Shown one piece after another: positions 5,722 to 54,386 of a DNA stretch of 64,000 nucleotides (position 1 is its first letter; each line of letters starts with the position of its first letter). The DNA lies in the NCBI GenBank assembly GCA_951406725.2, contig OX597815.1, positions 113,398,001-113,462,000 of the forward strand. Reading direction: 5' to 3'. Under the pieces are notes generated by a model that did not search any database, was not told the DNA's origin, and saw only the letters and a program-made list of their open reading frames with translations. This DNA is from Octopus vulgaris. Taxonomy: Eukaryota. Made by a program: the position numbers and the translations under genes.

Positions 5722-7535
5722 TCATATATGTATATTCATATGTTTGTGTGTATATGTGTAAGCATGTAGGTATGCATTTCTGTACATTGTTGTTGTTAGT
5801 GTTATTGTGTAGCCTTAGTCAGCTCTGTTTTGACAGATGTAAAATCACTTGACTGGTATTATTCTAGCCAAGGTCACCCCATCTTTATTGTAGAATTACA
5901 TCCTGATATAATTCTAGTCACTTTATTGTTTACATATAAATAATGGAGCAAAAATTAGGGCCAAACATGTACCGAGAACACTTGTAAAAATTGATATGGA
6001 GTTTATGGAGTATTACTTTTGCTTGCTGCATTGAGCATCTGAGTCATGTCCATAGAAGAATAATTCAATTGTGTTTCTATTTTTACTTAATGCTATTGTT
6101 CAGTTCACATTTATGGTAAACAAGTGAGAAACTGCTTGGTTTTGTTGTTGTTGAACCTCAGCTCAACTTGAAATGAGCAATCCTGTGATCAAAGATATTT
6201 AAATTGTAACAGTCTTATCATTTATTTTCTTATTTACTTTTTTCAGGTAGTATGTATCGAGGGTCACATTAACTAATGTGCTCCTTGCCTTTTGAGACAT
6301 GAAAATGTAATTTGAGGGAAATTTGATGCTATTTCTAACAGGTTGAGTGGTCACTTAGAAGAAAACCCCTATGTACTTATTTTTAAGGAGAGAGTTATGT
6401 AAGAAGTTGGTACTGAATATAGTTTTAACCTGTTTCAGAGCTTCATTTCTTCATCTCTGAATTGAAATCCTGCTTCAGTCAGTTTTGGGGATTAAATTAT
6501 TTGTAATATACTACAGGTTGAATTATATACTTGAACTACCAGCCAATAAGTGAACCTTCCTTTACACCAGGGGTCCCAATATGGAGTGTGAAATGGAATT
6601 TTAGGATTGCAGCAAAGAAGAAAAATATATATTTTAGTAAAATTGCTTTTTAGAATTTAACTATTAACTAACTCTTAAAAATAACTTTATTGTGTTAAGC
6701 ACACCAAGAAATTTAACCCTCAAGAGATTAAGACCAATTACTGAGTCCTTGTTCCATTAGGAACAACACATATGTGAATCTAGATTCATGTTTTCTTTTG
6801 TCAATGCAAATTACAGTCATCAAGAAAGTTCTATGTTTTGATGGCCGTAAATGAAAAGCAGGATCAAAGAAGTTATTGAATTTTATGTTCATAATTGTTT
6901 TTGATTTCACTCTAGTTATTCATTTGCTTTCTTATTACTCAGTTTATATTAGAATTTTTTTTCACTTTGTTTAAATCTTAACTTTTGAGTTTAATTTGTT
7001 CACTGTATGTGGTTCAAGTTAAATTAATTTGTTACCAGAAAATCGACGTTTTCACCTTCAAATGTGATATTATTTCTGTAAGAAGGGCTGGATGTGGTGT
7101 TGATGGTGTTGAAGAGCAGTAATTCTTGAAATATGCATAACACTCATTACATATTTTAGGCCCTTGTGGCCTAAAATAATGGCATCATTATCTTTCTAAG
7201 AAGCAAGAAAATTAAACACTTCTGAGGAGTGCAGGGTATAGAAAAGACTAACTTGCTAGAAATAGCAATTGAATTTCTGTCAAGTCATATTCTATCAACT
7301 CAAAAAAAAAAAAAAAAAGAGCATAGAAGACATTCAAAAATGTAGTTTTGTAAATTTATGACATTTGAAAAAAAACTATTTTGCAATTGAAATACCTCAT
7401 CCAAAGGTCAGTACACTCAGGGCTGACCTAGAGTTAAACATAAGATTTTCACAATTGAAAGTACCTTTTATCATAGATCTATTCAGTAACAAATGACCTG
7501 GGACTAAACACCAAGAAAAAGTGTTATTATTGTTT

Positions 7536-8045
7536 TATTTACATTATCTACATTCGACAGATATTTGTCCTCCTCTTGTTTGCTGTTAACATGTTTCTTC
7601 AGGTCTCTTGGGGAAATTCTGAACCTGGGTTCTCATTCCTAAGGTATTGTTCAATGTTATTTTTATTATTAATCATTATTATTATTATTATTATTGTTAT
7701 TGTTCAGGTCAGTGCTTGAAATCGAACTCGGAATCTTGAGGTTAGTAGCCCGCACTCTTAACCACTATGCCATTTACCCGTAGGCAAAAATGGCGTAGTG
7801 ATTAAGAGCGTGGGCTACTAACAGTGACCTGAACAATAACAACAATAATAATAATAATAATAACATCTAAAAATACCTTAGGAATGAGAACCCAGGTTTG
7901 AAATTTCCCCAAGACACCTGAAGAAGGCTGGAGGGTATATCAGCCGAAACGTTGTGTTAACAACAAACAAGATGGGGACAAATATCTGTCGAATGTAAAT
8001 AATGTAAATAATGTACATGATTCCTCATCTCTTAAATATAGAACA
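7536..8045. mobile_element. head-to-head inverted dimer of a tRNA-headed, hammerhead-containing short element
   Basis: Arms 7537-7775 and 7787-8009 are reverse complements. Each has an A-box TGGC(A/G)TAGTG, an (AAT)n linker and a shared body. TTATTATTGTTT flanks both sides (7524-7535, 8046-8057). Confidence 0.8.
7914..7957 (+). ncRNA. minimal type-I hammerhead ribozyme motif
   Basis: ACAC-CTGAAGA-A-GGCTG(GAGGGTATAT)CAGCC-GAAACGTT-GTGT. Stem I ACAC/GTGT, 5-bp stem II, palindromic AACGTT in place of stem III. Confidence 0.75.
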
Positions 8046-9204
8046 TTATTATTGTTTGTTGTGCGTGATCATCTAGATGCTGTCTACTTGGGTTTTCCCA
8101 TCTGTGTAGTTAGTTAAATACTTAGTACAAGATATGTTTTTTTTAATGTACACAGTATTAACATCAGTAATTTGGTGAGAACTGGTGTTTGTAATATTAG
8201 TTACCATACTGACACTTGGCATGGCATAGTGTGAATTATTTTTCAACATGGTAAACAGCTGAATTCTTTCTCAATTTACATGTGAATAATCACAAATTTG
8301 TGAGTGTGTGTGAATATGTTTTATTACATATATAAATACACAATTATATACAGACACGTGCATGCACACATACCTTCAAAAATGTATGCACACACACACA
8401 CACACAAAAATGTATACGCACACACACATATGCGTACTCACGCAAACAAACATCTACATCTCTTATATGTATACACATATACTTAAGCACCCAGATATAC
8501 ATATATCTATTCTCACACACACACACACACCAGTGAAGTTTCCTGACAAAAATGCAAAAAATTTCACAGAATGTCCTATCTAGTAAACACCAACCATTTT
8601 GAGATTATATGCGTACATTGCAGTACTTGTTTAGGATATATTCTACCATATAGATAAGCAGCAAATAGTCAGTTATATCTCCTAGTTTAGTGCTTGACCA
8701 GAATTTGACCTTTTTGTTTGCTTAGCTCTTTTCATACCAACCTGCTTGTTATTGCCTCTGGTTCCATGATATCACACTTCTTACATTAAAGTATTTATAT
8801 TTGAACTAAAATATTCTTATGTTCCAAATTCCAGTTTAACCCATTAGTGCCCAATTCTTTTTATTTAATAAATTAGCAAAAATCTTTTTTATACAACTTT
8901 ATCTGATACTAAATATATAAAAAATTTTTATTACAATATTCGAAAGACACCTCATAAAAAAGGACCATGAGCACTAATGGGTTAATAGTGAAAATACTAT
9001 TTTCAAAATTAACTAAAATAAGCATCATGGCTGTGTGGTTAAGAAGCTCCCTTTGTGACCATACAGTTTTAGGTTCAGTCTCATTGTACAGCACTTGAGC
9101 TAATGTCTTCTATATAGCTCTGGATCAATCAGTGGCCTATGAGTGAACTTAGTTGACAGAAACTGTACAGAAGTCCATTGTACTTATACATACATACATA
9201 TATT

Positions 9205-10326: not shown

Positions 10327-10517
10327 GGAACACAGAGAGAAACAAGAAGAAAAAATATATATATGTATGTATGTATATATATATATGTATGCATATATAT
10401 ATGTGTGTATACATATATCTGTGTGTATACATATATATATATGTATACATATATATGTATATATATATATATAATAAAATATTAGGGAATAAATCCAAAA
10501 TATGTATGTATATATAT

Positions 10518-11211
10518 AAAATAAATATAAGAGAGTGGTCACTATATGGCTCACTCTAGCACCAGTTAATCCAAAAGGTTTCAACCACAAAAATACATGT
10601 TTCCCATGAAAGTCAGTACGATTGTTAGCTCACACGGACAGGGCATATAAAAAATAACAAATACAGATTATTTTGGGACAATTGTTTCGCTATTAATGAA
10701 TTAAATGTAAATTTACTTACAATAAAATCCACTTGTAGCTCTTCAGCCAAAACTATCTGGATGAAATCCACTCAATCACACGCCAGATTTTACCATAACG
10801 ATAAATACGCGTGTGGTTCAATTGATTACATCCGACGTTATAATTCAAATGCCCCAACTAACAGCGCGCCAAAATTTGGCGCGCTGTTAGTTGGGGCATT
10901 TGAATTATAACGTCGGATGTAATCAATTGAACCACACGCGTATTTATCGTTATGGTAAAATCTGGCGTGTGATTGAGTGGATTTCATCCAGATAGTTTTG
11001 GCTGAAGAGCTACAAGTGGATTTTATTGTAAGTAAATTTACATTTAATTCATTAATATTGTCCCAAAATAATCTGTATTTGTTATTTTTTATTTGCCTGT
11101 CCGTGTGAGCTAACAATCGTACTGACTTTCATGGGAAACATGTATTTTTGTGGTTGAAACCTATTAACTGGTGCGTGAGCCATATAGTGACCACTCTCTT
11201 ATATTTATTTT
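10518..11211. mobile_element. ~694-bp near-perfect palindrome of a PLE-like terminal repeat
   Basis: Centre GCGCGCCAAA-A-TTTGGCGCGC at 10874. The arms differ by a few small deletions. A single arm recurs at 28639-28990 and its terminus at 54351-54390. Confidence 0.9.
10671..10752 (-). ncRNA. type-I hammerhead ribozyme motif
   Basis: TTTTGG-CTGAAGA-GCTA(loop ~43 nt)TAGC-GAAAC-AATT-GTC-CCAAAA. 6-bp stem I, canonical core, GUC triplet. Confidence 0.8.
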
Positions 11212-11342
11212 GTAAAAATATTATAATATATTATAAAATATTATAATAATCCAGGTTTCTCGGAGCACTAGGCCATTGGTGTAGAATAGATATACTATTA
11301 AATTAGTATCTAATTCTCTCACCCTTATTAATTAATTATGTA

Positions 11343-11609: not shown

Positions 11610-12343
11610 ATGTGCAGGTGTCCCCAACTACCATTCTTTTGTGTATGTTCCCATAACTTAACAGTTCCAGCCCCAAAAACCGATAAAATTTGTTTGACCT
11701 AAAACTTTCAAGACAGTACCCCAGTATGGCTGTAGTCCAATGACTGAAACAAATGAATGATAGTGTATTCCACTAAAAGTATGACTATACAAGAGCTAAT
11801 CAGAACTTTCCAGAGATTGTATTGAATATGCCTGATCAGTGGCAGCTGGGAATTCTTCCTCCAGATTTATCTCAGCAATATTGAATATACTGATATCATT
11901 CCTTAACCCTGAATTCTGCAGTAATATTCCATACTATTTTAGAGCTGAGATAGCCATCATCTGTGTTCCATGTGTTGCTGTCAGATAACCTTCTTCACTC
12001 CATGATAGAGATGATGGTCATAATGAAGATAGTAAAAGGAATGAGTTGAATAATATGCTATCAATGGTAAACAAATTTGTTGTTGTTTAACCCGGATCAG
12101 CTCTTATCAAATGGCTATCCCATTCTTTTTTTATATTTTTTTTATGGCACTGCACAAGCACTTTTATATGGCACTAGCATGAGTGCTTTTTACTTAGCAC
12201 CAGCACAGGACTCTTGCAGACCAATCCTCTTTACCAGAGGGAGGAGCCTTAACACTTCTGCTGTGGAGTACGGGTCTTCTTGAGTACAACAAGGTGTCAG
12301 GTGTCTTGATCCTTTGTCAGAACATACATACATACACACATTC

Positions 12344-13198: not shown

Positions 13199-13212
13199 TA
13201 AAATGATAAAAT

Positions 13213-14065
13213 AACCTAGCCAAAACCAAAGTCCTAATGAGTAGGAAGGTAGACAAATCACAAACGCCCTCAGGTAGATGGCCCTGCTCGATCTGTAGAA
13301 AAGGTGTAGGTAAAAACTCTATAAGATGCACAAAGTGTAAGCTATGGACACATAAGAGGTGCAGCAATGTCAAAGGAAGGCTAACTAGGAAAATAGTTTT
13401 TGTTTGTGGCAGATGCTCAGGAGCAATAAACACTGAAAATGTGCAGAGACCAACTTCTACCACATTCCAGGGAGAAAAACTAGAAATAGTTGATAGCTTC
13501 CATTACCTAGGTGACCAAGTCAGTAGCGGGGGTGGGTGTGCTGAAAGTGTAACTGCTAGAGTAAGAATAGCCTGGGCAAAGTTCAGAGAGCCCTTACCCC
13601 TGCTGGTAACAAAAGGCCTCTTGCTCAGAGTAAAAGGCAGACTGTATGATGCATGTGTACGAACAGCTGCTACATGGTAGTGAAACATGGGCCGTGTCTG
13701 CTGAGGGCATGCGTAAGCTCGCAAGAAATGAAGCCAGTATGCTCCGATGGATGTGTAATGTCAGTGTTCATACTCGACAGAGTGTAAGTACCTTGAGAGA
13801 AAAGTTGGACCAAAGAAGCATCAGATGTGGTGTGCAAGAGAGACATTTGTGCTGGTATGGTCATGTGATGAGAATGGTTGAAGATAGTTGTGTGAAAAAG
13901 TGCCACACCCTAGCGGTTGAGGGAACCTGTGGAAGAGGTAGACCCAGGAAAACCTGGGACGAGGTGGTGAAGCACGACCTTCGAACTTTAGGTCACACTA
14001 AGGAAATGACTAGAGACCGAGACCTATGGAAGTATGCTGTGTGTGAGAAGACCTGGCAGGACTAG
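13213..14065 (+). pseudogene. RTE-clade ORF2 C-terminal region (end of RT, PHD-type finger, C-terminal domain), frameshifted near 13670
   Basis: NLAKTKVL...C4HC3 finger...LEIVDSFHYLG...ARVRIAWAKF...LLHGSETW...MLRWM...WYGHVMRM...GRGRPRKTW are typical RTE/Bov-B-like motifs. Confidence 0.9.
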
Positions 14066-14781: not shown

Positions 14782-15126
14782 AAGGGGGTAAAGACCCCCT
14801 TCGGTCATGAGTGACCATGGGTTTGCACCTAGAGAGTTACCCTCTGAGGCACAAGTCTGGGCAAGGTTGTTTTATGGAAGACCAGTAGTCGCCCATGCAT
14901 ACCAGCCTCCCCTCTCCACGCCACCAGTGTTATCCAAGGGAAAGACAAAGGTCGATACAGCTTGGCACCTGTGACGTCGCAACTCATTTCTACAGCTGAG
15001 TGAACTGGAGCAACGTGAAATAAAGTGTCTTGCTCAAGAACACAACACGCAGCCCGGTCCGGGATTCGAGCTCACAACCTCACGATCGTAAGCTCGACGC
15101 TCTAACCACTGAGCCATGCGCCTTCA
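14782..15126 (-). mobile_element. full-length tRNA-derived SINE family C
   Basis: Minus strand GGCGCATGGCTCAGTGGTTAGAGCG...GAGCTCGAATCCC (A/B boxes), then GTGTTCTTGAGCAAGACACTT core. CpG-rich, probably young. Confidence 0.85.
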
Positions 15127-20383: not shown

Positions 20384-20528
20384 TATTAGATGAAAAATCA
20401 AAACTAAGGCAGGATGAGTATCTCAAGTCATTTACAATAATTAATTATTGATTATGAATTACTCTAATTAAATTATTCTAAATGACTTTAGATGCTTATT
20501 CTGCCTTAGTTTTGATTTTATCTTAATA
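20384..20528. repeat. short-spacer inverted repeat (~60-bp arms), possibly PLE-derived
   Basis: AAAATCAAAACTAAGGCAG...AGTCATTTA / TAAATGACT...CTGCCTTAGTTTTGATTTT. The right arm continues past the Helitron insertion. Confidence 0.7.
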
Positions 20529-24417: not shown

Positions 24418-26659
24418 ACTAACATAGAGAATGGTTCTCAAATATACAACATAAAGAAAATATAGAATATTTGTTACAGGCTGCTTCACAGAACATCTAG
24501 ACGTTTTGCTGACAATTCACTTCATCAGCTGCCAGTAAAGCAGAAACGTTTGCTCATTTAGCCATGCAATATATTATCAATGACACTAAGATTGATTGGT
24601 ATATAAATTGATGAGGAACATGCAAAGGAACAAAGCCATCACCTTGTATATTACTGATCTCAGAATGGCAATGAAGATAACCTCAGAGTGCTCTGCTAAG
24701 GGAATATAATAAGTTAGTGTGCTTAAATATATGCCAAGTTATATAGTAAATACATACACATAAAACTTAGGTAGTATAAGAGAGAGAGTGTGCATATAAA
24801 TTTTAATACCTAGAGAAGATAAAATATTAATTTTGTCGAAATGTTATCATGCAAATAATTACAGATTGTTGAAGAATCAATAAAAACAACAATGTTGGAA
24901 AGGAAATTCTAATCCAGACTCATCAATATTTAAATTTAAATTTCATTCAAATGCCACGGCTGTGTCAATGCTGAATGTACATTTCTGTGTTTTTCCCCAA
25001 GACACCTTCAGTGACAGTTTTTTTAATGGCCTGTTACAAAGGATTGACCTTTTGTAACTACTTCTTGTAATTAATCGCTCTCAGTGGAACAGTTTTACCA
25101 AAATAATGCACCCCCTCTGCTTTTTTCTCTTCCTCTATCTTTTGGTATCATTTTGAAAGTACTGAATTTTTTCTTTGTCTTGTTTTTCTTTCTCTCTAGT
25201 TCTTTTATTTATATTTATTTATTTGTTAAAGATACATCCGCAGAATCTTGATTCTTCCTGTCATTGTTGTTATTTGTTTTGGATTTTATTGCATAACCTT
25301 GATTCTTCCTGTTGTTGTGGAGTTTATATGTTGTTTGCATAAAAATACATGATAATGTGTTTTGTAAATATCAATAGGAAGCGTCCTGTTCTCATTTCTT
25401 TTTTTAACAATATGAAATGGTAGAGCTTGTGGAAAATGAATCTCTTTGAGTATTAGATGATCTAATACTTCATTGTTTAGACAACATGTTCAAAATATGG
25501 AGATGTTCCAAAATACCAAAGGGATATTTTAAGTTAACCTTAATGTCTGAGAAAACTTGTTGCAAATAACAAAATCTTTCAGAATATTAAGCAAAAGTTT
25601 GTTTCAATATTTAGTTACATCTAAATTATATTTCAATTGATTGCTTTGATCTCCAATTGTCATCAAGTGTCTTGTTCTTGGACATGTCTGTATTACCAGA
25701 CAAGGCTTAAACTAGTGTTAGATGAAGTAGTAGCAAGTGGTTTGTTAATATAAGAAAGAAAGAGTTATGGAGACATTTCCAAACCCTTAGGTACATCAGA
25801 GTTAAATTTATAACAGAATGATCACTGGTAAACTTACTATTAAGCATAGCTTATAATCAGAACTAGAACCCAAGAAATAATTGCATGTCAGAACAAGACT
25901 GTTATCCTGATCTTCATTTGAGTATGCAACTAGCTTTGTACTCTTTTTACCTGCTTCAAGCCTATTTGAGAACTTTAACTCAGCACTTCTTTTGCAATAT
26001 TATGGAAATATTTGTTAATTTTGTCATCCCCCACTTTTGTAAATAGTAGGCTTTCCTTACCTCATAGTTCTTATGGTACATATTTATACCTAGATCAATG
26101 GTGCATGTTTATACCTTGATTAATAATGGTGAATTTATCCAATTGCCTAAAACTAAAATACATGTAATCATGTGGGTGAGATTTCAGTAACAAGATTATT
26201 AAAGAAACTAAAATCTCAACATGCTATGCTTAAAAGAGTCCACCGTCACTGACCTACATGAACTGATATATATATAGTTAAGCATGTTATCCATTGACGT
26301 GATGCTGTCATGATCATCCACATAGCAATCTCAGTGACTGTAATAAGATACAAAACCATTGAGCCATGAAAGATGATTTGGTAGTTTTTTAAATCAACCA
26401 GCTGCGACTCTGATTACAATTTCAGTACCACAGTCTCTGAGCATTGTTGTCATGTTTCCAACAAAAACTGCTTGTGTAACAGGGAGAAGTTATTAAATTC
26501 CTGAAAGTCATATAGTAGGAGCAGTCGACATTGACATAGATAAAAGTGGACCTAAGGAACACAATATGTAGATGGTAATATCATTTGTGAATGGTGTCGT
26601 GGTGGTATATAATACAATTTATGCACAAATATGTGTGTGCATATACATACACACATACA

Positions 26660-28638: not shown

Positions 28639-28990
28639 GGCGCGCTGTTGGTTGGGGCATTTGAATTATAACGTCCGATGTAATCAATTGAACCGCACGC
28701 GTATTTATCGTTATGGTAAAATCTGGCGTGTGATTGAGTGGATTTCATCCAGATAGTCTTGGCTGAAGAGCTACAAATGGATTGTTGTAAGTAATATTAC
28801 ATTTAATTCATTAATAGCGAAACAATTGTCCCAAAATAATCTGTATTTTTGTTATTTTTTATTTGCCCTGTCCGTGTGAGCTAACAGTCGTACTGGCTTT
28901 CATGGGAAACATGTATTTTTCGTGGTTGAAACCTTTTGGATTAACTGGTGCTAGAGTGATCAATATAGTGACCACTCTCTTATATTTATA
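28639..28990 (+). mobile_element. single arm of the 10518-11211 palindrome family, between (TA)n tracts
   Basis: Colinear with 10878-11211 and retains segments deleted there. Confidence 0.9.
28759..28834 (+). ncRNA. type-I hammerhead ribozyme motif
   Basis: TTGG-CTGAAGA-GCTA(...)TAGC-GAAAC-AATT-GTC-CCAA. Confidence 0.8.
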
Positions 28991-28991
28991 T

Positions 28992-29025
<34 letters not shown>

Positions 29026-32915: not shown

Positions 32916-33000
<85 letters not shown>

Positions 33001-33335
33001 AATTAACAGAATGAGATAAAAATCCAAGGCTGTGAAAGATTACAGAACAGTTATAAGTAGGTCTTACAGCTGTTTCCGGGATATTTTATATATACCATTC
33101 TGCCTAAATAATGGAACTACAGATACAATATCCCTGCATATCTCACATCTATTTTCATTCCTCCACTTCACTCTCTATTCCATATCTTACCTAGAGTAAC
33201 TATTGCTTAACCATTTTATTACACCATCTCCGATGAAGGGATATATAAAATATCCTGGAAACAGCTGTAAGACCTTCTATTTATAAATGTTCTAAAATCT
33301 TTCACAGCCTTGGATTTATATCTCATTCTGTTAAT
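33001..33335. mobile_element. PLE-like inverted-repeat element
   Basis: ~92-bp arms 33001-33092 / 33240-33335; hammerhead motif overlapping the right arm. Confidence 0.75.
33227..33272 (+). ncRNA. hammerhead motif with variant core (CCGAUGA)
   Basis: TCT-CCGATGA-A-GGGATAT(ATAAA)ATATCCT-G-GAAAC-AGCT-GTA-AGA. Confidence 0.6.
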
Positions 33336-33524
33336 TTTTTTATATGTACACATGCTGATATATGACCTACGTTGGATTCCTCATTCACATAATCACCTAA
33401 TCCTGGAGCTTAACTATAGCTCCAGGATTAGGTATATAGTAAGTCAATAGCACCTACTCAGCATTACCTGACACCTTTGGGTCTTATTGACACCATTACC
33501 TCTTATAACCTCTCTCTCTATATA

Positions 33525-34954: not shown

Positions 34955-36000
34955 CTGCACAAAATACACATAGTCCCCACCCTCTCAACTTCCAAGCCCA
35001 AGATATAAACACCTACACACTGGCAAAAGAAACTTCAGACCAACATCCACCTAACCACTGACACCATTTATTATTATCTAGTTCCATTAAAGTTGATTGA
35101 ATTATTTACCAAACCTAACCCAATAACATGACTGTTTAACCCAACACTTGAAAGGATAGAAAACTAAATCTACAAACTTCAAGACAGAAAATTTTATTCA
35201 CATTTATTTATATATTTTACAAATTTAATTTATTTGTTTTATACTTGAAACTAGCAAAAACAGTAACGTTAAGACTAAATAGCTTACATTATTTAGTTTA
35301 GCCCCTCTCTGTTCAGAGTTCAAATCCCACTTGGGTTGATGTTTCTCATTTATCTCTCTAGGATTGAGAAAATAAAAATATTTGCAATGATAGGCTGAGA
35401 CTAAATTTAGTTGGCTTTGAATCTCTCCTGGAGATACTCACTTTGTATCCTGTCCAAAGGGACATTTATTTCATGACATATAAGTACATAGAAAGAAAAT
35501 AAGCTTCTGATAGCTTCAAGGTGAAGTTTTGTTATTGGAAATTACATGAAGAGAAAGACATGATTGAATGACTGAATCTATAACTTTCCACAAGTTAGTT
35601 TTAACTTGCAGACAATACAAAGTTTTACCCTAAAACGAGCAGACAATACAATTTCACTTAGCAGGCAACACAAACAGTTTTGCTTTAAATCTAGAAGCAA
35701 AGAGTTTCAAGTAACTGGCAACACAGTTCTATCATAAAAGTAGCAAACTACACAAATAGTTTGCCTTAACAGAAGCACCCAGAACAGTCTGTGAAGTGGC
35801 TGATGTTTGAAGGGTATCTAGTCATAGAAACCATGCCAAAACAGACAATTGGAGCCTGGTGGCCAGCTCCTGTCAAAAACCCTCCAATTCCTACCAGCAT
35901 GGAAAAAAGACATAAAATGATTATGATGATGATGAACTTAAAATGAGCTAGTTAGAAAATCTTTATAAGAGATGAAAGCAGTAACTATTGTGAGAAATAA

Positions 36001-36310
36001 TACTTATTGCCATTTGAATATGGCTGTTCTGTAGAAACTGATGTTACTGCATTTTTTAACCCCAGGAGGACGCCTCCTCTAGCTGGTTATTCAATGCAAT
36101 CTGCACCTGATATATATTGCAAAGAAGTCAAAGCCATACAGTCTGGTGGCTCCATGGCTGGAAGATGTTAGGGGTTCACTTCCCTGCTTACAATATATAT
36201 GGGGTGCAGATTGCATCAAATAACCAGCTGGAGAAGGGGGTCCTTCTCGGGTTAAAAATAGCAGTAATATCGATTCCTACAGAACAGCCATTTTTAAGTG
36301 GCGATAAGCA
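36001..36310. mobile_element. foldback element (~120-bp imperfect arms, ~70-bp spacer)
   Basis: ATGGCTGTTCTGTAG..AGCTGGTTATT..TGCAATCTGCACC..ATATATATTG is mirrored at 36191-36310. Confidence 0.75.
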
Positions 36311-36660
36311 TTACTTCTGAACTTAAAATTGATAACCTTAATATAACATTTTTATTTATTCTTGAAGGGATCAGTTTTTTCTTTTTTTTTTCTAGAAAAG
36401 AATGGTAAGCCAATAGATTGGTCTAGTCATTTTATGTTAGTTAACTAAAAGGATATGGTATTTTTGTTTTAGAATTATTATATCTATATAAATGACAATC
36501 TCTCTTAAGACATAGCAAGTAGATACACATTTTATTTGAACAAATCAATAAATGTAATCATCTTTGCAAGGTCAGCATTACCAGCATCTAGTAATAAATT
36601 AGGGCAATTCACTTCATTGCACCCAGAAAGGGTTCCTAGCTTCCGCTTTATGATAAGGTA

Positions 36661-45265: not shown

Positions 45266-45352
45266 TCGGTAAACCATAAATCTGAAAAAGAAGCACACTC
45301 TAAGTTATAGAGCAGCTTATAATATAAATAAAGTTAGTTAAGGCCAGTTTAA

Positions 45353-45413
45353 GGGATTATCCTGGGTTTCACATCCATAAGGCATTTAGCTTTACAGCAT
45401 ATCATCAGATTCC
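45353..45413 (-). other. hammerhead motif, cleavage triplet mutated
   Basis: Minus strand GGAAT-CTGATGA-...CTGTAAAGC(TAAAT)GCCTTATGG...GAAAC-CCAG-GAT-AATCCC. Confidence 0.5.
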
Positions 45414-45521
45414 AAAACCTGTTGGCTTAAGCCCTCTCTAGTGAGTAGCCTCTCTAGAATACGGAGGGGGAAAGGACCTCGCTAGTCAATGTCAACAACA
45501 GGGGATTGTGTCTCCCTTTGA

Positions 45522-45750
45522 CTATTGATCACCAGTGACCCTGTTATCCTGTGGGTTCCAATAGGCTAACAGGAATTTCCTGAAATGCAAGCATGGTCTG
45601 AAGACCTCCATTCTGGGGTAAAAGATGTTCCCTGGGCCGAAGGAGTCATTTAGAATTCTCACCCATTCCGTAATGCATAGTTTACAGCGCTTGGTCCCAT
45701 TTATGTAGGAGCCTGAATTTTCTAGGGTAATCAATAGCCAGACGAAGACA
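45522..45750 (-). pseudogene. PLE ORF C-terminus (GIY-YIG endonuclease C-terminal region)
   Basis: SYINGTKRCKLCITEWVRIL...NIFYPRMEVFRPCLHFRKFLL fits the recalled PLE pattern Y-x5-C-x-L-C-x2-E...N-x-R-x-E-x4-C-x-H. Confidence 0.7.
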
Positions 45751-45828
45751 ATCCCCTGTTGTTGACATTGTGAAGCAAGGTCCTTTCCTCCTCCATATTC
45801 TAGAGAGGCCTTAAACCCAATAGGTTTT

Positions 45829-45889
45829 GGGATCTGATGATAAGCCATAAAGCTAAATGCTTTATGGACGTGAAACCCTGGTTATTCCC
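45829..45889 (+). ncRNA. type-I hammerhead ribozyme motif
   Basis: GGGAT-CTGATGA-TAAG-CCATAAAGC(TAAAT)GCTTTATGG-ACGT-GAAAC-CCTG-GTT-ATTCC; base of stem II imperfect. Confidence 0.6.
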
Positions 45890-45915
45890 ATAAACTGGCA
45901 TTATCTAACTTTATT

Positions 45916-46676
45916 CATCATCATCATCATCATCATCATCGTTTACCATCCGCTTTCCATGCTAGCACGGGTTGGACGATTTTGACTGAGGGCTGGCGAA
46001 CCAGATGGCTGCGACAGGCTCCAATCTTGATTTGGCAGAGTTTCTACAGCTGGATGCTCTTCCTAACTCCAACCATTCTGAGAGTGTAATGGGTGCTTTT
46101 TACGTGCAACTGGCATGGGGGCCTATCAGGTAGTACTGGCAACGACCTCGCTCAAATCTTTTTATACATGCCACCAGCACAGGTGCCAGTAAGGCGACGC
46201 TGGTTACAATCACGCTCAAATGGTGCCCTTTTACGTGCCACCGGCATGGAAGCCAGTTGGCTGCTCTGGCAATGATCATGCTTGGATGGTGCTCTTGGCA
46301 CCCTACTAGCATGGGCACAAGTGCCAGTAAGGCGACGCTGGTAATGATCACACTTGAATGGTGCCTTTTATGTGCCACTGGCACAGAAGCTGGTTAGCCG
46401 CTCTGTCAACGATCATGCTCGTATGGTGCTCTTTGCACCCCGCTTGTACGGATACCAGTCATTGAATGTGATTTTGATTTCACTTGCCTCAACAGGTCTT
46501 TGCAAGCAGAGTTTAGTGTCCAAGGAAGGAAGAGGTATGCATAAGGGGATGGTTACGCTCCTGGCATGAGCCACAGGTTATGGTCTCATTTGGCTTGCCA
46601 GGTCTTCTCAAGCACAGCATATTTCCAAAAGTCTTGGTTGCTAGTCATTTCCTTAGTGAGGCCTAATGTTCGAAGA
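45916..46676 (-). mobile_element. RTE LINE 3' fragment (subfamily with duplicated 3'UTR block)
   Basis: (CAT)n tail; colinear with 54485-55191; reaches the ORF2 terminus. Confidence 0.85.
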
Positions 46677-47076
46677 GGTGCAGGAGCAGTTGTGTATTAA
46701 GTAGCTTGCTTACCTACCACATGGTTCTGGATTCAGTCCCATTGCGTGACACCTTTGGCAAGTGTCTTCTACTACAGCTTTGGGCTGGCCAAAGCCTTGT
46801 GAGTGGATTTGGTAGACTGAAACTGCTAGAAGCCCATCATGTATGTATGTATGCATATATGTATGTATGTATGTGTGTTTGTGTGTCTGCGTTTGTACTG
46901 CCACCATTGCTTGACAATCAATGTTGGTGTATTTACATCTCCATAACTTAGCACTTCGGCAAAAGAGACCAACAGAATAAGTACAAGGCTTACAAAGAAT
47001 AAGTCCTGGGGTTGATTTGTTCAACCAAAGGTGGTGTTCCAGCATGGCTGCAGTCAAGTGACTGAAGCAAATAAAA

Positions 47077-47080
<4 letters not shown>
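46677..47080 (+). mobile_element. full-length SINE family A
   Basis: GGTGCAGGAG head through GACTGAAGCAAATAAAAGAAT. Confidence 0.85.
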
Positions 47081-47115
<35 letters not shown>

Positions 47116-47371
47116 CATGGCTGGCATCTTACAGTTTCCATCTACTAAATTGTCTCACAAGGCTTTAGTTGGCCTGAAACTATAGCAGAAGACACTTATT
47201 CATTGTGCCATGCAGTGGGATATATCTGTATGTAAGTATATATGTATGTATGTCATTGTTCAGCTTTATTTCAAGATTTCTTGGCAATAGAAAAAAGAGC
47301 CGCTTTCTAACCTAGATCCAAGGTTCCTCCATTGGAATTTCAACATCAACAACAGGATATTTTTGTTTGTA

Positions 47372-49960: not shown

Positions 49961-50462
49961 ACAGTCAAGAAATAAAACATAAATGAAAATAATAGTATAT
50001 AAATGTTTTAAATTACTATCATTGCTCTTCTAGTAGGTGTAATTGTTTTATATGCATTTGTATATATGGGTGTTTATGTATGTATGTGTGTGTATAAGTA
50101 TAAATACGTGCATACCTACACATGTGTATGTGTGTGTGTGTGTGAAATATTATTAAACACATATACTAATGTATATGCTTTTTGTGGCTTTTCAGCATCA
50201 CGTGCCCACCTGGGTTGAAGGCACATATGTATTTAATAAAGATTTTTTTTTTTTTAAATGACAAAACATCAATGTCGCTTCCAAATGGGATTGAGGGTGA
50301 GTTATCTCACCTGTCCATGGCTCTCAGGTGTTTTAACATTGGCGACATGAGAGTTATATACTCTACTACATCATTGCAGCCACTGGAAAGTACACAAAAC
50401 ATATACATTAGTATATGTGCTTAATAATATTTATTATACTAGAGCTACTTTTACCTTATATG

Positions 50463-51274: not shown

Positions 51275-51455
51275 CTGTTGTGTCTGGGGAGAGTCATTCT
51301 CTTTTGGTGCCTTATAGAGAGTCAAAACTATTGAAAAAGTTGCAAGACGGAATGAAAATTTTAGAAACATAAAAAATAAATAAGTGAAAATTTTACCCGT
51401 GAGTGTGTTGAATTATAAGGCACCAAAATAGAATGACTCTCCCCAGACACAACAG
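51275..51455. repeat. 42-bp inverted repeat with ~97-bp spacer, within an element flanked by (TA)n
   Basis: CTGTTGTGTCTGGGGAGAGTCATTCT.TTTTGGTGCCTTATA and its reverse complement. A second diverged copy of spacer+arm lies at ~51625-51752. Confidence 0.75.
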
Positions 51456-54320: not shown

Positions 54321-54386
54321 ATATGTATATGTATGTATATATATATATATGTGAGCCATATAGTGACCACTCTCTTATATTTATTT

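Follow-up and report, generated by a model that had tools for sequence, protein, structure and literature searches.

A tRNA-headed, hammerhead-bearing short element of Octopus vulgaris that is probably a non-autonomous PLE

Introduction

The window, a 64-kb (64,000-nt) stretch of the Octopus vulgaris genome, contains a pair of inverted short elements in which a tRNA-like head stands before a hammerhead-bearing body. This arrangement raises the question of which machinery transcribed, copied and inserted them. A preliminary description proposed a Pol III-driven SINE/retrozyme hybrid, inserted as one unit and possibly mobilised by PLE machinery. Each of these terms has a background in published work, which is cited here from excerpted text throughout. 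Schistosome Sm-alpha combines a tRNA-derived promoter with a hammerhead, and the excerpts of PMC6765202 and PMC2770079 name no PLE partner for it. Animal retrozymes have been proposed as non-autonomous PLE derivatives (bioRxiv 10.64898/2026.07.22.740005, PMC7229834, PMC7761336), and the excerpt of the bioRxiv report never mentions tRNA, a promoter or Pol III. PLE insertions exhibit features that are absent from LINE insertion, namely truncation at the 5' end, an adjoining copy in inverted orientation that is likewise 5'-truncated, and a tail of 30-40 bp on one of the ends (PMC8557442).

Based on the sequence features described below, we consider it likely, though well short of certain, that the element is a non-autonomous PLE with a tRNA-type head, probably transcribed by Pol III. 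This SINE-like parasite probably relies on Penelope enzymes for its copying, and not on the LINE enzymes that normally copy SINEs. The locus itself is best read, with reasonable but incomplete confidence, as one old insertion of an element of ~290 nt that comprises a tRNA-like head, (AAT)n and a PLE pseudo-LTR end.

Architecture of the locus

At the locus, a minus-strand arm (7535-7779) and a plus-strand arm (7782-8044) lie inverted to each other and are joined head-to-head at 7780-7781 (Table 1), in agreement with the original placement of the meeting point at ~7780. Over four aligned blocks, 178 of 198 columns are identical (~90%), leaving a difference of ~10% between the arms. Each arm runs from the tRNA-like head through the (AAT)n-rich spacer to the body; the repeat is internal, not terminal, and the head-spacer-body junction is identical in both arms. 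Contrary to the statement that both arms share the same body, the right arm bears an additional 33-nt extension (8012-8044) that is absent from the left.

Table 1. Coordinates of the features of the studied locus within the window
Feature	Position	Strand	Remark
Left 12-bp direct repeat (probable target-site duplication)	7524-7535	+	Last base overlaps left-arm end
Left-arm body, tail-less class	7535-7659	-	Outer end corresponds to 8011 of right arm
Left internal (AAT)n-rich spacer	7660-7703	-	
Left tRNA-like head	7704-7779	-	A box 7772-7762, anticodon-like loop, B box 7727-7719
Central junction, imperfect palindrome	7773-7790		Centred on 7780-7781
Right tRNA-like head	7782-7831	+	A box 7791-7801, one mismatch; B box lost
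Right internal (AAT)n-rich spacer	7832-7862	+	
Right-arm body, PLE pseudo-LTR-like module	7863-8011	+	Geometry as in control PLE families
Minimal type I hammerhead	7913-7958	+	Right arm
Optional 29-33-nt PLE-type tail	8012-8044	+	Right arm only
Right 12-bp direct repeat	8046-8057	+	With A8045 forms ATT at junction

The flanking 12-bp direct repeat noted at the outset was confirmed: it is AT-rich and of low complexity, and its 12-mer occurs at only two places in the 64-kb window (7524 and 8046), while its 11-mer is also present inside the left spacer. A flanking repeat of at least 12 bp arises by chance in 0.15% of 4000 random pairs and in 2.5% of 3000 AT-rich pairs. The junction hairpin (7765-7800) has a predicted energy of -14.2 kcal/mol, and the whole inverted pair, folded as RNA, reaches -271 kcal/mol versus -104 kcal/mol for 30 shuffles. 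In run X1, one of the public runs described below, contig depth rises 10-30-fold at 7462-7527, just outside the left direct repeat, perhaps owing to a low-copy repeat.

tRNA-like heads and hammerhead

The left A box matches the consensus at 11 of 11 positions. A B-box core begins 45 nt downstream of the A-box start, at 7727, with its last base off-consensus, and the transcription start (+1) would lie at 7779. Pairs of A and B boxes at tRNA spacing, scored with a general box consensus, occur twice in the window versus 0.06 in 200 shuffles. In the right head, a 27-nt deletion at 7822/7823 took out the B box; the A box is preceded by a 2-nt insertion and carries a mutation at its last G. In the studied copy, only the left arm has a 5' end of SINE type, with A and B boxes spaced as in a tRNA. 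The cloverleaf is weak: ARAGORN makes no tRNA call at default settings and recovers the left head only once the threshold is so low that the window yields 316 calls; in Rfam, neither a tRNA nor a hammerhead match appears in the window even at E<=10 (0 matches at gathering, 11 weak unrelated matches at E<=10). The original proposal that a tRNA-type promoter layout is joined to a hammerhead-bearing body is supported.

The two arms have lost different parts, as originally described. The left arm keeps its B box and the 5' half of the hammerhead core (7603-7597), but has lost stem II (a deletion of 23 nt) and also the GUU triplet (3 nt). The right arm lacks the B box and keeps a complete hammerhead, in which stem I (7913-7917/7954-7958, 5 bp) is followed by the core (7918-7924), an unpaired A7925, stem II (7926-7931/7940-7945, 6 bp) and GAAA (7946-7949). 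A palindromic ACGU (7949-7952) takes the place of stem III, and the cut after the GUU triplet is predicted to follow U7953. The hammerhead fold is the MFE structure (-13.0 kcal/mol), with an unremarkable z-score of -0.2 to -0.6.

Minimal hammerheads of metazoan PLEs are characterised in PMC4209133 by a long stem II, a short stem I, an unpaired nucleotide before stem II, the pair G10.1-C11.1 and a palindromic 15.2-16.2. The right-arm hammerhead has the features of this minimal type I class, including G10.1-C11.1 and the palindromic 15.2-16.2. In the same excerpt, a single minimal motif is inactive and dimers are weakly active. Across 40 distinct flank pairs from the window and the control loci, which are related and not independent sequences, the free stem-I positions pair at a mean of 2.0 bases versus 0.87 in shuffled sequences, a value as high as the observed one occurring in 0 of 2000 shuffles; the studied copy pairs all four free positions.

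Abundance and inverted joints of the family

Parts of the stretch are contained in 20 public runs from 11 studies and five organisms. Contigs of 4 of the 24 listed runs were aligned to 7330-8290 at 82% likeness, yielding 37,509, 17,301 and 28,600 contigs in runs of three organisms and 1,379 in a run guessed to be RNA; none of the listed runs is recorded as RNA. In run X1, the summed depth is 20-60 in most flank bins, 1-6.5 million in the right-arm body and up to 1.8 million in the left head, where summed contig depth is not equivalent to copy number. The three organisms are related, and the family is very abundant in each, perhaps with 10^4-10^5 copies. Because it is so abundant, the family is probably already present in repeat libraries, where it is likely labelled as a SINE. 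Within the 64-kb window, no further copy of head or body was found; a 16-nt match at 24992 and a 12-nt match at 12308 were considered and rejected, as neither extends. Exact body or hammerhead patterns had 0 matches in viral, metagenome and prokaryote genome contigs.

The hammerhead core is kept in this family: its only common non-CpG variant lies at the free position 7922 (73% T in run X1), and the CpG positions 7945, 7946, 7950 and 7951 vary at 8-18%. For the B-box core, no variant at or above 5% is listed, although positions near the masked repeat may be dropped. The preliminary description held that its reading would fail if the consensus lacked an intact hammerhead core or B box. No such loss is seen, since the family majority retains the hammerhead core and no common B-box-core variant is listed. 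In run X15, guessed to be RNA, loose ends at 7950/7952 resemble small deletions, not cleavage ends.

Among the best 15 of 189 joints, 13 are head-to-head, leading from an antisense arm to a sense arm; of these 13, 11 fuse the head (7740-7784) to a body that starts at 7892-8004 and two are body-to-body inversions. The remaining two of the 15 are one arm switch and one internal deletion. These 13 joints display the PLE-derivative feature of an inverted copy that adjoins the 5' end with variable truncation. For most joints the support is a single contig whose shorter side spans 19-60 nt; five of the rows are found again in a second organism, and one is found again in the run guessed to be RNA. 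In addition, 130, 72, 105 and 4 contigs continue at 7773 with a palindromic consensus. This run-on suggests a self-complementary 5' end of the family, recurrent full dimers, or both. At 7774, 7776 and 7782, the majority letters of the family render the centre more symmetric than in the studied copy. Since inversions between head and truncated body recur at many junctions, the dimer appears to be a routine insertion product, not a special unit. Of the earlier claim that the dimer was inserted as one unit, the single insertion event is therefore retained, while a dedicated dimer unit is not, since variably truncated inverted joints recur family-wide.

The joints also bear, indirectly, on whether head and body belong together or occur independently elsewhere, the other condition under which the preliminary description would fail. 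An ordinary tRNA-(AAT)n SINE might lie beside a member of a separate PLE fragment family that targets (AAT)n microsatellites, the two not travelling together. PLEs favour ATT and microsatellites (PMC11167929, PMC8557442). Moreover, the summed depth of the head is about one third of that of the body in X1 and lower in X8, so that many bodies may lack heads, and contigs do not cross the two (AAT)n runs, both of which were masked in the alignment, so that no record can span head and body. A search of predicted proteins for head-body linkage gave no matches and carries no weight either way. However, the junction between head, spacer and body is the same in both arms, whereas a body inserting by its own 5' truncation would yield variable junctions. 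Fusion of the 5' end of the head to a truncated body, as seen in 11 of the best 15 of 189 joints, is likewise unexpected for an independent SINE. We accordingly regard chance juxtaposition as improbable.

A translated copy of the body constitutes the annotated N-terminus of three O. sinensis isoforms, which indicates that the family is present in Octopus. The N-terminal ~36 residues of LOC115224785 (P0002, P0003, P0005) correspond to the translated body, hammerhead included. The product is a cysteine-rich, receptor-like membrane protein, and the N-terminus of the O. vulgaris record P0004 differs; the O. sinensis N-terminus probably reflects a copy exonised in the 5' UTR and mistaken for coding sequence. 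We also considered whether the open frame that crosses the body is a remnant of a PLE ORF, an interpretation rejected for now because only the O. sinensis gene model matched; against the ORFs of the control loci, the frame had no match better than E=0.05.

The presence of a body copy within a Pol II gene model, together with the weak cloverleaf, would be compatible with a passenger head. In that case the element would be PLE-mobilised, its RNA would be made by read-through of Pol II or from a promoter in the pseudo-LTR, and all that the head would mark is a fusion in a master copy. The longest cDNAs, however, end ~12 nt or less from the inferred +1 (7773-7784), as an internal promoter predicts. 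Furthermore, neither sense arm contains a T4 run, versus three T5 runs on the antisense strands, albeit in small numbers. A head without a role in transcription thus seems unlikely, and a tRNA-type promoter at the head of a PLE-mobilised element is the preferred interpretation.

Two 3' ends and control PLE loci

Among the rows listed, outer ends fall at 8044 in 345, 267 and 332 contigs of the three organisms, and at 8012 and 8015 combined in 185, 141 and 181. The tail-less share is ~35% in each of the three organisms among these rows, beside which there are 1,163 further loose-end rows. These ends lie +91 and +58-62 nt past the predicted cut. At the studied locus both classes are represented, the short one by the left arm and the long one by the right. 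An optional tail with two 3' end classes is a feature of PLE derivatives; its length here, 29-33 nt, is at or just under the quoted 30-40 nt. The 3' poly(A) or simple-repeat tail of SINEs is absent, and the sharp ends at 8044 and 8012/8015 lead into mixed flanks.

For comparison, a pattern for the hammerhead of the element retrieved 122 metagenome loci, of which 121 were analysed (104 distinct sites). These loci contain 40 long ORFs, and nine were picked for a Pfam scan: three had no match and six matched RVT_1, two of these narrowly missing the curated cut-off and one of the six showing GIY-YIG as well. Three families with 56 copies besides 3 references were scored. The ends of family A are located at +67-74 nt past the cut in 15 of 24 copies and at +103 nt in 7; those of family B at +39-48 nt in 10 of 23 and at +79-84 nt in 11; and those of family C at +53-58 nt in 4 of 9 and at +87-91 nt in 3. 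The two end classes are ~33 nt apart in each of the three families. An inverted upstream arm was detected in 17 of the 56 copies. Wherever a tailed forward arm was accompanied by a detected inverted arm, the latter was tail-less (6/6), as at the studied locus; in most other pairs, the tail of the partner was not visible to the script. Among the 77 control sites with 250 nt or more of upstream sequence, none has a head with A and B boxes, and none of the 121 loci yielded an autonomous PLE that shares the element body, similarity being confined to the hammerhead. Two loci, L029 and L055, carry tandem RT ORFs of 830-880 aa with a hammerhead between them and are apparently intact tandem PLEs in metagenome contigs. 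The two 3' ends, the inverted joints and the RT-linked control geometry together strengthen the suggestion that PLE machinery is the likely mobiliser.

The same observations weigh on the possibility that the dimer originated from two insertions, from a later inverted duplication or as a MITE/foldback DNA element, and not from one retrotransposition. The ~10% divergence of the arms fits such an origin, although it is also compatible with two related templates; the direct repeat is AT-rich, with its 11-mer in the left spacer; and no empty site is found among the joints listed, the contigs breaking at both flanks. Nevertheless, the pairing of one tailed and one tail-less arm recurs in 6/6 scorable controls, and the inverted junctions are variable across the family. 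Minority letters at 7922, 7987 and 7991 (27%, 34% and 17% of X1 depth) are common to both arms, which favours one template or one subfamily. Because the 33 nt are present on one side only, the dimer ends are not terminal inverted repeats. A separate origin of the arms is thus highly improbable, and a single PLE-type insertion remains the preferred reading. An Sm-alpha- or retrozyme-like route, in which Pol III multimers are cut by the hammerhead into monomers or circles and then copied by LINE or PLE, would account for the head followed by a hammerhead (as in the excerpted accounts of Sm-alpha), the conserved core and the two of the best 15 of 189 joints that start at 7955/7956, adjoining the predicted cut, but is very doubtful given that no head-to-tail joint occurs among these 15, that no start pile-up is listed at 7954, that family ends lie 58-91 nt beyond the cut and not at it, that the minimal hammerhead is inactive as a monomer in the excerpt of PMC4209133, and that ~0.6 of 15 joints would lie within 2 nt of the cut by chance (a hand estimate). 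The term retrozyme hybrid was therefore abandoned: the copies occupy opposite strands, their hammerhead belongs to the minimal, dimer-dependent type, and the head-to-tail tandem with two same-strand hammerheads that typifies retrozymes does not occur in the inverted arms or the best 15 of 189 joints. The expectation of circular RNAs finds no support for the same reasons of strand and joint.

Proposed mechanism of insertion

ATT is where a Poseidon protein nicks its target, both strands of which it extends; synthesis begins internally, at two sites that set the limits of the tail, on RNA that has not been cleaved (PMC11167929). The behaviour of PLEs described in the excerpts of PMC11167929 and PMC8557442 accounts for the ATT junction and for a tailed and a tail-less arm joined at their 5' ends. 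On this model, Pol III would transcribe the octopus element from the A and B boxes and, with no T4 on the sense strand, read past its end. Pol III is suggested by the boxes, the longest copies ending near the inferred +1 and the lack of a sense-strand T4. A PLE RT/GIY-YIG protein, deduced from the insertion footprint, would then bind the 3' module and nick AT-rich DNA. Internal initiation of the cDNA, either at 8044 or ~30 nt away at 8012-8015, would produce a sharp end without a poly(A) tail; such initiation by the RT would tolerate run-on transcripts. Both target strands would presumably be extended, one per start site, and the products joined head-to-head. Usually one arm would be 5'-truncated; here both are full length and would have met at the self-complementary 5' end, where two cDNA ends may have annealed or a single cDNA folded back.

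The template would have been uncleaved RNA, because a cut at 7953 would remove the head. The minimal hammerhead may then be a retained feature of the pseudo-LTR and not a device for monomer release, since it needs a same-sense partner and none exists in the inverted pair. The left hammerhead and the right B box would have been deleted during later decay. The dimer can thus be viewed as an ordinary PLE insertion product, and the new part is the combination of head and pseudo-LTR. Whether the family is a true Pol III SINE-equivalent of PLEs, in which a tRNA promoter joined to a pseudo-LTR has reached perhaps 10^4-10^5 copies via PLE RT/GIY-YIG, we regard as an evenly balanced question.

Neighbouring repeats in the window

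Two other hammerhead-bearing repeats in the 64-kb window also form inverted structures. The first is an unrelated repeat of ~370 nt, present as a full-length head-to-head dimer at 10500-11235 (10500-10870 on the minus strand, 10878-11235 on the plus strand) with a 7-nt AT centre, as a single copy at 28639-29010 and as a 3' fragment near 54351. It bears a type I hammerhead-like motif with a palindromic stem III loop, its copies lie in AT-rich or (TA)n sequence, and no tRNA head was recognised in it. Between the arms of this dimer 1 of 334 aligned bases differs, and of 14 differences from the copy at 28639 they have 13 in common, which favours the copying of one template, or gene conversion. Its right arm alone has four small deletions, one of which removes the GAAAC core. 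In both dimers, 7535-8044 and 10500-11235, exactly one arm has lost the hammerhead through a short deletion (n=2), and this one-arm loss may reflect a symmetry-breaking decay of palindromes.

The second structure, at 45324-45918, is an inverted repeat whose arms each contain a motif resembling a hammerhead core; the 119-aa frame that separates them has no Pfam match. We take this frame to resemble the C-terminal end of a PLE ORF, and the structure probably represents an inverted PLE insertion in truncated form. Short spacers also separate the arms of further inverted repeats at 35993-36318, 32988-33348, 20394-20519, 46737-47220, 51275-51455 and 50145-50432; no hammerhead core was seen in the first four. 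Two overlapping frames at 13210-14065, one with a PHD-finger match, presumably resemble the 3' portion of an RTE-type LINE. The window also contains further SINE heads of tRNA type, each with an A box, at 15116 (-), 36959 (-), 44269 (-) and 53536 (+), with sequences unlike that of the studied element.

Implications and comparison with known systems

If the proposed reading is true, a third, PLE-dependent class of passengers would exist beside LINE-dependent SINEs and LTR-dependent TRIMp3. The element of ~290 nt would delimit the minimal cis-signals for PLE reverse transcription, and dimers of full length joined head-to-head would follow from its self-complementary 5' end. The short junctions of the family, which number in the thousands, would provide a natural data set on the origin of PLE tails and inversions; counts of tail use, inversion junctions and target sites among the copies would bear on how tandem and inverted PLE structures form. 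Among recently active octopus SINE families, 893 of 900 are unclassified (PMC13282606), and a PLE passenger could reclassify part of this fraction. Read-through transcripts of inverted pairs would form long double-stranded RNA, a possible ADAR substrate; RNA editing was not seen in X15 (guessed to be RNA), where A>G differences match those of the DNA runs.

Like tRNA-derived SINEs, including those of octopus, the element has A and B boxes at tRNA spacing, is shorter than 300 nt and is very abundant. Unlike them, it lacks a 3' poly(A) or simple-repeat tail, its repeat is internal, and it exhibits two 3' end classes and inversions. Octopus tRNA-derived SINEs were reportedly described by Ohshima and Okada in 1994, and the family names are OK, OR1 and OR2. 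A tRNA-headed, PLE-dependent element was not found in the literature searched, to which most subscription journals, Repbase and Dfam did not belong. Within the excerpted texts of the octopus and mollusc repeat papers PMC13282606, PMC8967140 and PMC10294476, hammerheads or ribozymes are not mentioned, and the excerpt of PMC6962438 reports 235 hammerheads in the giant squid with no link to a SINE.

The resemblance to Sm-alpha and Sj-alpha lies in a tRNA-derived promoter followed by a hammerhead and in a high copy number. Those elements form tandem repeats in which the hammerhead frees monomers from multimers, whereas the octopus element is inverted and has a minimal hammerhead and PLE tail ends; this distinction is drawn from review descriptions, and not from sequence alignment. 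With animal non-LTR retrozymes (PMC7229834; bioRxiv 10.64898/2026.07.22.740005), the element shares a short, non-coding sequence, a type I hammerhead and proposed mobilisation by PLEs. Retrozymes are head-to-tail tandems with at least two hammerheads and circular RNAs, whereas the octopus element has a tRNA-like head and no tandem joint among the best 15 of 189.

MRC1, a known non-autonomous PLE derivative, and other Chlamys derivatives (PMC8557442), as well as PAc Poseidon (PMC11167929), exhibit the same minimal type I hammerhead, an optional 30-40-nt tail at one end, an inverted copy directly at the 5' end with variable 5' truncation, and an AT-rich target, as far as their excerpts describe them. 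The octopus element differs from them in its tRNA-type head with A and B boxes and in its internal (AAT)n. Pol III-headed passengers have so far been framed in the excerpt of PMC10886601 as SINEs (non-LTR) and TRIMp3 (LTR). TRIMp3 elements (Cassandra, Helenus and Ajax), for which an origin by SINE insertion has been proposed, likewise place a Pol III promoter on the cis-signals of a non-LINE retrotransposon. They rely on LTR machinery, with PBS, PPT and, in Ajax, a 5-bp TSD (PMC10886601), and the octopus element would represent their PLE counterpart.
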